Source: Escherichia coli
Lineage (GTDB): Bacteria > Pseudomonadota > Gammaproteobacteria > Enterobacterales > Enterobacteriaceae
Assembly (NCBI RefSeq): GCF_045037415.1
Contig: NZ_CP173438.1
DNA length: 64,000 nucleotides
Reading direction: 5' to 3' (one strand)
This document shows, in pieces, positions 30,601-33,600 of the stretch. The position numbers are program-made. Every line of letters starts with the position of its first letter. Within the stretch, counting starts at the first letter, position 1.

Positions 30601-33600
30601 AGGAGCAGAAGGAGAAACAGAAGCAGCACATTTCCTGTTGCATTCTTCTCAGTGTATCCGCATGCAATTGTGGTTATTGCAGAAACAACAAAAAAGAATA
30701 AAAACAATAAAATCCGGGGGGTGTTTCCCGGACAAAACAGTTTTCTGATATTCATCGGAGTATATCGACAACATTATTATGAAGAGAACAGGATAATAAA
30801 AATCAGAATTATCTGTAAAACAGATAACAGACAACCCTGCAGTAATAGACTGCAGGGTATTTCTGTTTAATTGCAGAAGATATGCAATTATCTTAATTAC
30901 AGAATATACGCAATTATCGTTCAGGAGCAGTGTCGTCAGAAGTTATAAGTCATACCAAGCATGATGTCATGACTTTTAACATCAACTTCTGACTTATATT
31001 TATCGCCCCACTCGTCCTTGTAACTCACACTGCTGTCACCTGCATCAAGATAGCGATAGCTGAGGTCCAGAGCGATATCCGGGGTTACGTCATAGCGGAC
31101 ACCCGCGCCAAGGCTCCATGCGAAGTTGTCAGCAGAGCCTGAACGTGACAACGATTCGCGACCACTGCTTCCGTACTCATAATCCCAGGTACTGATACCG
31201 GTTGTTTTCTGGTGAATTCTGGCGTAGCCAATCCCTGCGGATACCCATGGTGTGAATGCGCTGTCATTCCGGAAGTCATAGTACGCATTCAGCATTAGTG
31301 TGTTGACTGACACCTCATTCTTCAGGTCATCACGCCAGTAACCACCTGACCAGCTGTCTTTATCTACGTTATACTTCGAATCAGCTTTTCCACGAGCGTA
31401 AAACTCCAGTTCTGTACGAACCGGAATACTGAACTGCGGATAAAAATCATAACCGACCGCAATACCGCCACTGAATACCGTATCATGGTCATCGCCGCCT
31501 TTATACTTTGATGTTTCTTCCTCATCTCCTGACAGGAAACGCTGGTCTGAAAGTGACATCACAGAGGCACCGGCTTTACCGGTCAGATAAAAACCGCTTT
31601 TACCTTCCTTTGCTCCTGCATTTACTGCAAATACACAGGCTGCGGCCACCACTGAAACAACAAAAACCTTATTCATTTCAATTATCTCCATTATTGTATC
31701 ATCATTTTAATATATATTTTTAATATTTAAAAACCGGACTAAAGGCAGCCTCAACACTCCACACTACGGAAGCCAGACTTTTACTCTACACAAAATAAAT
31801 ATATCTTCTCAGTGAGGACGTGAACGCCTGTCTGAAATTATGTGAATACAACCTCCCCAGAATACAAACAGGCAGGGGCACTGGAGTAACCGATCACAAT
31901 ACTTCTGCCTTTTTATATTTTACCGATAATCTCCGTTTAATATAGTTCTTACCGATTTCATAATCGGGGTTCCATGTAGATAAATTATGAACACCTATTG
32001 CTACTGCACTCGCCACTCCCAGAATTACGGTTGGTGACCATAAAGAACCAGCTAAAGCTGTACTCCTGTACTCAGTATATACACGACAACTTAATTTCGT
32101 TTTCTCTATTTCATGCTCCACTCTTTTTACCGTTTCACTAACATCGGAAACATTTTCGATCACAAAACTCTTACGTTCATAAATAAGCTTGCTTAATGTA
32201 TTTATATCTAAAAATTTCGCATCAAAAGAATCAATCTGTACTGTTTTTTCTTGTGCTGACATCTTCTTTTCCTGGCTGGTATGGCAAGTGACGGAGACAA
32301 GAGAAACGTTTTAAGCTCAGTTATCTCCGCCATCACTTTCCACGAATGACAAGTAATTTTGCCTATTTTAAAACCATGCAAAAGGCAGGGTAAAAGGAGA
32401 AAATTCGATCGAATCGATCGACAAAATCGATCATACATGATGAAGATTTTTTATCGAATCCATAAAAATAGTGACAGCTAACCGGCGTTGCAGGAACAGT
32501 CAGAAATGGGCGTTTGGGAAAGAGCCATAGCACTACGTCGTCGCTGACATAGAGGAACTGTGCTTTGTTGATAAGATCCTTTATACGGCAACCAATCCAC
32601 TGGACAAAAGATGAACTACGTAATCACCGGGTTCTCACTGACGAAATACAGAAGTTAATGACACAACTGTGCCATGTACCTTGTACAACAGCGGTGGAAA
32701 GCTCTCAGAACAATGGAATTGCAGAAAGGTGTTAAAACGATGAAAGCCTTCATACCCAAATCGAATGTAAGAACGGCAGTAAAGACTGAATTGCGTAACC
32801 TTGCAGTAGCTCGAGTATTACACTGCATAGTGTGCAGGGTTATCTCCCATCGAGAAAATATCGGCGCCAGCGAATAACGTCACCTTAGATGTAGCAGTTG
32901 CCAAATAGTGACTCAAGGGCGGGCTTACCGCATACACTGACACTTAGCGGATCGACAGAATATTATTAGCAGATCATCACTGAACGCTACGTAATTATCG
33001 TAATAAAGGCTTTTTCTGGCTACCAGGAAGACCTGACATGGCTCTGCTCTGGAACCAGGCCGCAGGAAGCATCAATCTGGAGTTTATCAGCTACTGGAAT
33101 TCCGGTGTATTGGCAGCCCCTGATAATCACCTGACCCACGAAGAGCGCTCTGCTTTGCAGAAACTCTGGGGCGGTTTGGAGACAGGAGATGTAACGATTA
33201 TAGGACGTTCTGATGAAGTCCATGATTTTACCTCCGCCTTAATTAACTGTTTTCTTTCTGAAGAAGAAATTGTCTGGTGGCAATCAGGTGGCATTTTCCC
33301 GGATCCCTGGCCCGCTAATATATCCCGGCTGAACTGACGATTAACGCGATATTGCAAATATGGCATCTGAATCGATCATGATTTGGCGGCATCCATCTCC
33401 GTTCACAGTTTGGCATGCTTCCGATCATTGATTGGCATCCAGCCAGTCACTCCGGGAATTAACTCTTTTCACCGCAGTCTCCATTGCCGTGTTTAAACCA
33501 ATGGAGACGTCAATGTCCAAAAAGAGAAAATCCAGGAGTGATCCTACCCACGTAATGTGGACACGGCCCTAAGCGAGATTATGGTTTTCAAATTGTTCCG

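Follow-up and report, generated by a model that had tools for sequence, protein, structure and literature searches.

A conserved GATC cluster upstream of hek/hra/tia-type adhesin genes of Escherichia coli as a candidate Dam-sensitive regulatory site, and a small gene inserted behind it

The window, a 64,000 nt stretch of E. coli DNA, carries a hek/hra-type outer-membrane beta-barrel adhesin gene (hek) on the minus strand at positions 30936–31676, identified from its annotation, its tia/hek homology and a Pfam match to OMP_b-brl (8e-21). Upstream of hek on the same strand lie an AT-rich spacer revealed by sequence scans (31677–31893), a small gene here called T (31894–32262), the decayed 5′ remnant of an hra-family outer-membrane protein (OMP) gene (32263–32316) and a conserved block of approximately 155 bp (32317–32472) that was recognized by genome search, locus context and alignments as the regulatory block of hek/hra/tia-type OMP genes. 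Further upstream, the minus strand holds only integrase and GTPase remnants.

The initial annotation had recorded a reverse-strand ORF of 122 codons, and this was borne out: T runs from an ATG at 32262 to 31894 and is preceded, 7 nt upstream of the start codon, by the Shine-Dalgarno-like AGGAAAAG (32266–32273, minus strand). It is annotated as encoding a hypothetical protein (WP_001275822.1 in UTI89). Our homologue search found 42 homologues, the family comprises 264 clusters at 50% identity, and dN/dS is 0.05–0.12. Conservation of the ORF had been set beforehand as a test, and by these measures of sequence divergence T is a real, conserved gene. It had also been described as having no recognizable family. 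That is correct for curated libraries, as the T protein found no match in Pfam, NCBIfam or PADLOC, but the 264 clusters amount to a large family that has no name. PHROGs returned one weak match (E=0.0013), to a family of unknown function; a PDB sequence profile search with T returned nothing, and Foldseek of the T model against the PDB returned nothing below E=0.7. The core of the AlphaFold model has a pLDDT of about 95, and its nearest known counterparts are small two-layer alpha/beta domains, namely the SepF C-terminal domain, IF3-C and the AlbA_2-like domain 2kyy. Family members have a beta-alpha-beta-alpha-beta core, an uncharged Ala/Gly-rich segment, an H-N-x2-T-x-N-P-D-Y-E motif and a terminal beta-hairpin, all of which are found in T. 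In family alignments H92 and P99 are invariant, and conservation reaches at least 90% at R60, R66, T96, D100, Y101 and E102.

A C-terminal transmembrane (TM) segment had also been attributed to T. The hydrophobic stretch spans approximately residues 67–92 of 122, making it internal, and it is marginal; the best-conserved region of T comes after it. The stretch is uncharged and 42% Ala+Gly, with a Kyte-Doolittle 19-mer maximum of 1.71. On the translocon-insertion scale of Hessa et al. 2005, the best 19-mer of T scores +3.8 kcal/mol, compared with −2.6 kcal/mol for a genuine TM helix in the PEtN transferase encoded nearby. Across the family the median is +4.0 kcal/mol, the score is 1.5 or lower in 2 of 85 members, and in one member the segment shrinks to 12 aa. 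In the AlphaFold model, both flanks of the segment pack into one sheet to give a single compact domain (pLDDT 88–95). A tandem T-T protein also exists in the family. The internal position, the insertion score and the single domain formed by the flanks speak against a C-terminally anchored single-pass membrane protein. From the model, the hydrophobic part is probably an internal Ala/Gly-rich hairpin and not a C-terminal membrane anchor.

Comparison with tia/hek loci was used to place the breakpoints of a segment of approximately 620 bp (about 31693–32316) that carries T and separates the block from hek in this allele type only. In T-less genomes the block abuts the OMP start codon, as found at the eight OMP-bearing loci examined, and a ninth T-less locus, flanked by IS66, has lost the OMP gene and retained the block. 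By this comparison of sequences, the segment is an insertion between the block and hek, and hek is the ancestral target of the block. The OMP remnant within the segment, defined in allele alignments, consists of a ribosome-binding site, GGAGATAACTGA, a start codon position that is now CTT and approximately 13 signal-peptide-like codons, and is approximately 57% identical (hand count) to the start of E-93 hek. In the spacer between T and hek, also part of the segment, two promoter-like matches lie immediately before hek; the AT-rich promoter-like sites in the segment could drive hek without the block. Neither a terminator scan nor fold analysis found a terminator-like site between T and hek; a hairpin over the T stop codon lacks a U-run and has a fold z-score of −1.3. 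As the two genes are on the same strand with no terminator between them, T and hek are likely to be co-transcribed.

The block itself is present in 1670 of 5426 complete E. coli genomes (approximately 30%). It contains a group of three Dam sites, and the locus comparison shows that this GATC cluster is part of the cis-regulatory block of the hek/hra/tia outer-membrane adhesin/invasin genes. The initial annotation had assigned the cluster to the small ORF as its own promoter, an assignment that does not stand, because the cluster belongs to the hek/hra/tia upstream region and the ORF lies on the allele-specific segment. Two promoter-like candidates were found in the block by consensus scan, both on the minus strand, so that it is uncertain where the cluster lies with respect to the promoter. 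The better conserved has a −35 TTTACC (32394–32389), an 18 nt spacer and a −10 TAAAAT (32370–32365), and the allele alignment places it within a nearly invariant stretch of approximately 37 nt. The three GATCs are 13–40 bp upstream of its −35, and if this promoter is used, the cluster is at about −50 to −75. The alternative, TCGATA and TATGAT with a 16 nt spacer (32430–32457), is less conserved among alleles, and its −10 overlaps the distal GATC.

The three GATCs, at 32407, 32416 and 32429, lie within 26 bp (32407–32432) in TCGATCGAATCGATCGACAAAATCGATCA, and all were confirmed in the sequence upstream of the small ORF, as was that sequence itself. In the direction of transcription the order is distal GATC, 13 bp, middle, 9 bp, proximal. 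The next GATCs on either side are at 32158 and 32575, and this is the only GATC triple inside 60 bp anywhere in the window. Density is a poor guide, however: 165 GATCs scattered uniformly would be expected to give a triple within 22 bp in approximately 20% of such windows, so density alone is not significant. It is this expectation that would allow the cluster to have arisen by chance, without function, from a low-complexity ATCGAT repeat, a reading that we consider very improbable, as the cluster is conserved, with its geometry retained, in ten alleles with coding regions that differ by up to a third. Among ten diverged alleles of the block, the distal GATC is present in 9/10, the middle one in 10/10 and the proximal one in 9/10, while flanking bases diverge; 10 of the 12 GATC columns show no variation, compared with a background of 44% (P=0.007). 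The cluster is thus meaningful because it is conserved among diverged alleles, not because it is dense. The one allele without the distal GATC is that of ST130, in which the OMP gene is pseudogenized.

Two further elements are built on these sites. The 13 bp GATC pair forms an ATC-N9-GAT (T-N11-A) LysR-type box, ATCGATTTTGTCGAT (32417–32431, minus strand), which is kept in 9/10 alleles and scores 7/10 against the OxyR half-site consensus. Against the OxyR tetramer consensus (ATAGnTnnnAnCTAT, a 7 nt gap, then the same again) the best score here is 13/20, a value reached at 28 positions in the window. The middle and proximal GATCs are held in a perfect 8-1-8 palindrome, TCGATCGA-N-TCGATCGA (32405–32421). 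Three alleles with a 9 bp insertion carry a T:A to C:G change that leaves the dyad symmetry intact; as this compensatory change is limited to one lineage, it counts as one event.

The 17 nt palindrome might instead act in RNA, as an intrinsic terminator for minus-strand read-in or as a stem-loop at the mRNA 5′ end. The terminator scan does flag TCGATCGATTCGATCGA followed by ATTTTCTCCT, and hairpin potential is retained in the 9 bp-insertion alleles. But the stem has only seven pairs, no upstream gene on the minus strand needs termination, and an Rfam search of 31400–33000 returned no match. The T-run, weak here, is absent in other alleles (GGTTGTAACC, GAAAAGATTC), and an intrinsic terminator was rejected on this lack of conservation in spite of the hairpin. 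We regard an RNA element as improbable, if slightly less so than a product of chance.

The closest match in geometry is the std operon of Salmonella enterica. The std upstream activating sequence has GATCs at −242, −229 and −220, where methylation blocks HdfR binding and HdfR blocks methylation (PMC6735912). On the transcribed strand the GATCs of the hek block are at 32432, 32419 and 32410, giving the same spacings, 13 bp on the distal side followed by 9 bp on the proximal side, with three GATCs in 25–26 bp. In both cases the cluster is upstream of an adhesin promoter, and the perfect palindrome of the hek block is formed by the two proximal sites, the pair that is essential in std. The likeness to std is one of geometry. 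The two also differ in position, the std cluster being at −242 to −220 and the hek cluster at about −50 to −75, or over the alternative −10, and StdE and StdF, required for the std loop, lack counterparts at hek.

Other Dam-dependent sites share parts of this arrangement. The regulatory region of agn43 (flu), which encodes an autoaggregation/adhesion outer-membrane protein and is found on a mobile island, also contains three GATCs. The core of its 13 bp pair, GATCGTTTATATCGATCGAT, is identical to the 20 bp core of the hek block, GATCGATTTTGTCGATCGAT, at 17 of 20 positions, and the two score similarly against the OxyR consensus (14/20 for agn43, 13/20 for the hek block). However, agn43 has its third GATC 19 bp upstream, as against 9 bp downstream in the hek block, and the agn43 site is a repressor site downstream of the transcription start with no extended homology to the hek block. 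GATC pairs exactly 13 bp apart inside LysR-type half-sites also occur in Mu mom, opvAB and P22 gtr, and in gtr both OxyR half-sites contain such a pair (PMC2909390). Where gtr and opvAB have two separated GATC pairs and alternative OxyR occupancy, the hek block has a single compact cluster.

The pap-type Lrp/PapI/Dam switch also controls an adhesin and is present on the same island as hek. It relies on a GATC pair separated by 102 bp, each GATC within one of two triplets of Lrp sites, together with a PapI homologue, and in this window the pap GATC pair is at 43198 and 43300. In the hek block there is a single cluster, with no second GATC 102 bp away, and a pap-type switch was rejected. PapR, an sRNA of UTI89 considered as a possible resident of the region, lies outside the pap island.

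A more general role for Dam sites could be played by SeqA, which might bind the hemimethylated cluster after replication and transiently sequester the promoter with no site-specific regulator involved. Three GATCs in 26 bp suit such a role. The spacings of 9, 13 and 22 bp can be set against the SeqA criterion of at least two GATCs within approximately 31 bp on the same helical face, with which the outer pair is compatible; at 22 bp, or approximately two helical turns, that pair is within SeqA bridging range. SeqA also influences agn43 and std. Nevertheless, SeqA needs only the GATCs and not a conserved palindrome, an ATC-N9-GAT box or a compensatory change, and in the known cases it modulates a regulator/Dam switch and is never the switch itself. 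Sequestration by SeqA alone consequently seems unlikely, though less so than an RNA element. We conclude, by analogy, that the best models for the hek block are switches of a LysR-type regulator and Dam (HdfR at std and OxyR at agn43, gtr and mom), and not primarily SeqA, which may still be involved.

The initial annotation had proposed a methylation-sensitive promoter on the density of Dam sites. Density was insufficient, and the promoter is not that of the ORF; what survives is a cluster that is conserved and built like established Dam-dependent sites. On these analogies, the cluster is very likely to be a functional, methylation-relevant regulatory site. The strongest competitor is that the TCGATCGA repeats are the site of another regulator, or an architectural promoter element, in which the GATCs are merely embedded and Dam methylation is irrelevant. 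Conservation extends beyond the GATC tetramers to whole TCGATCGAT words, and any dimeric regulator that recognizes TCGATCGA would also preserve GATC; moreover, the OxyR score is modest, and no phase variation of hek, hra or tia was found in the literature. This reading has to contend with the fact that, in a Dam-positive host, three N6-methyladenine pairs within a palindrome bound by a protein almost always alter binding, as established for OxyR, Lrp, HdfR and Fur (PMC2909390, PMC6735912, PMC8160106). Moreover, the ATC-N9-GAT box and the exact 13+9 spacing both correspond to known methylation-sensitive sites. We consider it doubtful, though clearly the most credible of the alternatives.

Our own explanation, a hek-family block with T inserted behind it and acting as a Dam-sensitive LysR-type switch, we judge to have roughly even prospects of being correct. 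In it, the block would be a Dam-methylation-sensitive site for an HdfR-like or OxyR-like regulator of the LysR type. Only unmethylated GATCs would let this regulator occupy the ATC-N9-GAT box and the palindrome next to it, and its occupancy would in turn shield the GATCs from Dam. Competition between Dam and the regulator after replication would then generate heritable ON and OFF lineages of the kind known at std, agn43, gtr and opvAB. T, now directly behind the block, would be expressed with hek in the same subpopulation, perhaps along with the PEtN transferase gene beyond hek. Its product would be a cytoplasmic alpha/beta domain whose uncharged Ala/Gly-rich hairpin may dip into the inner membrane.

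Autoaggregation, adherence and invasion are mediated by Hek, Hra1 and Tia in uropathogenic, neonatal-meningitis, enteroaggregative and enterotoxigenic E. coli. More tentatively, and with somewhat less assurance than for the explanation as a whole, we propose from the same analogies that all three may be under a previously unrecognized Dam-dependent bistable switch, operated by HdfR or OxyR at a std-like three-GATC geometry, and that in a large ExPEC lineage a mobile-element protein may have become the first gene product of the operon. If this is true, infection and vaccine studies must allow for expression of the adhesin in a subpopulation only, the short list of Dam-dependent switches gains a member, and HdfR-type control reaches from Salmonella to E. 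coli. No report of hek, hra or tia being controlled by Dam, OxyR, HdfR or phase variation was found in the literature, though one may exist; such silence on phase variation of Hek, Hra1 and Tia could mean either that the switch is new or that the trait is absent.

T is probably a passenger at this locus and not a partner of Hek. No conserved functional partner emerged from its neighbours elsewhere, and candidates were rejected as parts of the integrative-element backbone (DUF932, YqaJ, a Gp3-like RDF, RadC and YfjJ). A 122 aa ORF near papI (44233–44601), considered as a paralogue, is unrelated. Nor did T loci share flanking DNA that could indicate the origin of the insertion, as similarity ends at the coding region. 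The only recurrent close neighbour, a divergent gene for an XRE/CI-type repressor, is absent here and directly adjacent in approximately 10 of 67 loci. Locus context places the family on integrative elements and plasmids, and a role for the integrative element at the cell envelope is a weak guess at its function. T represents a widespread family, as yet without a name, that travels as cargo of integrative elements and plasmids and has no known curated model or fold relative; some of its members are fused to TerB, TerD/Sel1 or LRR domains.

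An ATG-initiated ORF of 122 codons, reported in the initial annotation, is present on the reverse strand at 31894..32262 (-), with the ribosome-binding-like sequence AGGAAAAG 7 nt upstream of its start. The gene and its product are here called T. The three Dam sites noted upstream, at 32407, 32416 and 32429, are all found in TCGATCGAATCGATCGACAAAATCGATCA. The genes here run from a Mokosh type II MkoC helicase-nuclease through a phosphoethanolamine transferase and a Hek/Hra-type beta-barrel outer-membrane protein (OMP; here hek, 30936-31676, -) to T, which is followed by integrase and GTPase remnants and then papX and the pap operon. 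A 1 kb region containing T is 100% identical in many ExPEC genomes, including UTI89, NU14, UM146 and ST131 isolates, where T is annotated as 'hypothetical protein'. The island is bordered by tRNA-Phe(GAA) (23646-23721, +) in the window and by a tRNA-Leu in the otherwise identical UTI89 region, and thus the tRNA gene at which the one hek/T/pap module is integrated varies between strains. Just within the island, beside the integrase, the gene for a large helicase and PLD-nuclease protein (25995-29147, +) matched MkoC of the Mokosh type II anti-phage defence system in PADLOC (E=0); its annotated start in UTI89 is approximately 360 nt further upstream.

When only the region upstream of T (32263-32560) was used to query 5426 complete E. 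coli genomes, matches were returned from 1670. Just 400 of these matched most of its length, and the remainder matched only 32317/32359-32472. Nine genomes that lack T were opened for context. In eight, the approximately 155 bp block that carries the GATC sites (32317-32472) lies directly upstream of the start codon of a gene annotated as 'outer membrane protein' or tia; these genes belong to the hek/hra/tia family and occur in islands of several kinds. The ninth genome has lost its OMP gene beside an IS66 element. The block, which had been taken for T's own promoter region, therefore belongs to the hek/hra/tia OMP genes. The phosphoethanolamine transferase gene (29256-30755, -) follows hek on the same strand, and six of the eight T-less loci with an OMP gene show this arrangement too. 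This suggests that block, OMP gene and transferase gene form a conserved module, which may be a single operon. Other cargo was seen behind the block in E. coli E-93 (L007, 4636-8156; a 770 aa TerB-family protein and an ATPase) and in strain E62 (L079, 2331-3163; Druantia druA). The site behind the hek block is a hotspot for defence-type genes.

The segment carrying T is a presence/absence polymorphism. In pairwise comparisons with alleles that lack T, homology extends through hek to approximately 31689-31692, breaks off, and begins again at 32309-32317. Approximately 620 bp of additional sequence, T included, thus lies between hek and the upstream block that was ancestrally its own. Positions 32263-32316 read GGAGATAACTGA, a decayed OMP ribosome-binding site and first codons, with CTT at the start-codon position followed by signal-peptide-like codons. 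Because this is a decayed copy of the start of an OMP gene, the event looks less like a clean insertion than like recombination involving two loci of the hra family. An inverted repeat over the T stop codon (31861-31919; 15 bp arms, 87% complementary, 29 nt loop) has no U-run and its folding z-score is not significant. As T and hek are on the same strand with no terminator-like site between them, they are predicted to be co-transcribed from the block.

The window is GATC-poor overall (165 sites vs approximately 234 in shuffles) and includes no other GATC triple within 60 bp. With uniform placement, a comparable triple is expected in approximately 20% of windows, and the density that was initially offered as an indicator thus proves nothing alone. 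The block was aligned for ten alleles whose OMP genes are 67-92% identical to hek. The distal, middle and proximal GATCs (32429, 32416 and 32407, in the direction of transcription) are retained in nine, ten and nine alleles, respectively. Of the 12 GATC columns 10 show no variation, vs 44% of columns overall (P=0.007). Immediately downstream of the cluster, the alleles vary freely. The single allele without the distal GATC has a pseudogenised OMP gene, and a 9 bp insertion (ATGATCrCA) in three alleles (L008, L078 and L081) creates a fourth GATC. Conservation peaks at the GATC core (32430-32411) and again in a stretch of approximately 37 nt (TTTTACCCTGyCTTTTGCATGGTTTTAAAATAGGCAA, ~32394-32358) that is near-invariant among alleles otherwise 10-30% diverged. 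The latter includes the best promoter-like match, TTTACC-18-TAAAAT, a candidate that would place the GATC cluster at approximately -50 to -75. As its conservation exceeds the needs of a -35/-10 pair, the stretch may also hold a second regulator site. An alternative candidate promoter, TCGATA-16-TATGAT, would have the distal GATC inside its -10 but is weaker and less conserved.

On the transcribed strand the GATCs are spaced by 13 bp and then 9 bp, distal to proximal, and the 13 bp pair makes ATC-N9-GAT, a classical LysR-type box. A perfect 8-1-8 palindrome (32405-32421) contains the middle and proximal sites. In the three alleles with the 9 bp insertion its outermost pair is changed from T:A to C:G with dyad symmetry kept; the change is confined to one lineage and so counts as one event. 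A scan flagged the palindrome as a terminator, but this was rejected because the T-run is not conserved between alleles.

In the UAS of Salmonella std, three GATC sites fall within 25 bp, at -242, -229 and -220 (PMC6735912); their spacings, 13 and then 9 bp, equal those of the block and come in identical order. The LysR-type regulator HdfR binds the std UAS only if it is unmethylated and keeps Dam from methylating the two proximal sites (PMC6735912). GATC pairs with 13 bp spacing are also found in Mu mom and in both OxyR half-sites of P22 gtr (PMC2909390), and the core of K-12 agn43, GATCGTTTATATCGATCGAT, is identical to GATCGATTTTGTCGATCGAT of the block at 17/20 positions. The block scores 13/20 against the OxyR consensus and agn43 14/20; as 28 positions in the window also score 13, OxyR is a plausible rather than a demonstrated regulator. 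The pap-type design requires two GATCs 102 bp apart, and the block lacks such a pair. The Lrp/Dam phase-variation switch of pap itself is in the window, approximately 11 kb from the hek cluster, with papB-papI intergenic GATCs at 43198 and 43300 (AACGATCTTTTAA, AAAAGATCGTCTAA) exactly 102 bp apart. A search of the literature, in which several older non-open papers were beyond reach, found nothing linking hek, hra or tia with Dam, OxyR, HdfR or phase variation. From these comparisons we infer that the block would act as a Dam-sensitive LysR-type (HdfR- or OxyR-like) switch. It probably adds one more member to an established class of epigenetic switches and does not represent a novel type of system. 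T would share any subpopulation-restricted expression through co-transcription with hek. A putative switch controlling a clinically relevant adhesin family is of more interest than an isolated ORF of the hypothetical kind.

The T ORF itself is a genuine gene that belongs to a family and occurs in a mobile-element context. Its dN/dS is 0.05-0.12 relative to plasmid and Enterobacterales homologues. The initial annotation recognised no family, and indeed curated family libraries returned no match, nor did a PDB sequence search or Foldseek; however, a word-indexed search found 42 relatives with identities down to 43%, and 264 clusters (50% identity) emerged from an exhaustive profile search. A genome scan located 67 T-family loci, often two per genome, mostly in Beta- and Gammaproteobacteria (including Vibrio, Alcanivorax, Pseudomonas, Dechloromonas and Aeromonas), with two in Campylobacterota and single MAGs from other phyla. 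A plasmid copy with 71% nucleotide identity is present at 293 places on E. coli plasmids. One such plasmid was opened, pEC24-2 (IncFII RepA; L077, 6998-7351); its 117 aa homologue (approximately 70% identity) is flanked by a DUF2726 gene and an IS110 element within a mosaic region rich in IS elements. Neighbours elsewhere are integrative-element backbone genes (DUF932, YqaJ, Gp3-like RDF, RadC, DUF2787 and YfjJ), and an XRE/CI-type repressor is directly adjacent and divergently transcribed in approximately 10 loci. As no OMP was found among the neighbours of T elsewhere, T at this locus is probably a passenger rather than a partner of Hek. A low-confidence guess is that it acts close to the envelope on behalf of the mobile element.

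The C-terminal transmembrane segment initially attributed to T is not convincing. The hydrophobic stretch has no charges, is 42% Ala+Gly and, though 22-27 residues in most family members, is only 12 in one; on a translocon-insertion scale its score is +3.8 kcal/mol (family median +4.0) vs -2.6 kcal/mol for a true transmembrane helix in the protein next door. A tandem T-T protein also exists (P0043). Taken together, these features make a single-pass C-terminal anchor unlikely, and the stretch more plausibly forms a short hairpin that dips into the membrane or is buried in an oligomer. The most conserved residues are those after this stretch. Across 85 aligned sequences H92 and P99 never vary, and conservation is at least 90% for T96, D100, Y101, E102, R60, R66 and E49. 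Fusions to TerB, TerD+Sel1, BspA-type LRR or lipoyl-like domains occur in some relatives; among the tandem and fusion proteins (P0043, P0045, P0158, P0184, P0135, P0078 and P0102), the link to TerB is recurrent.
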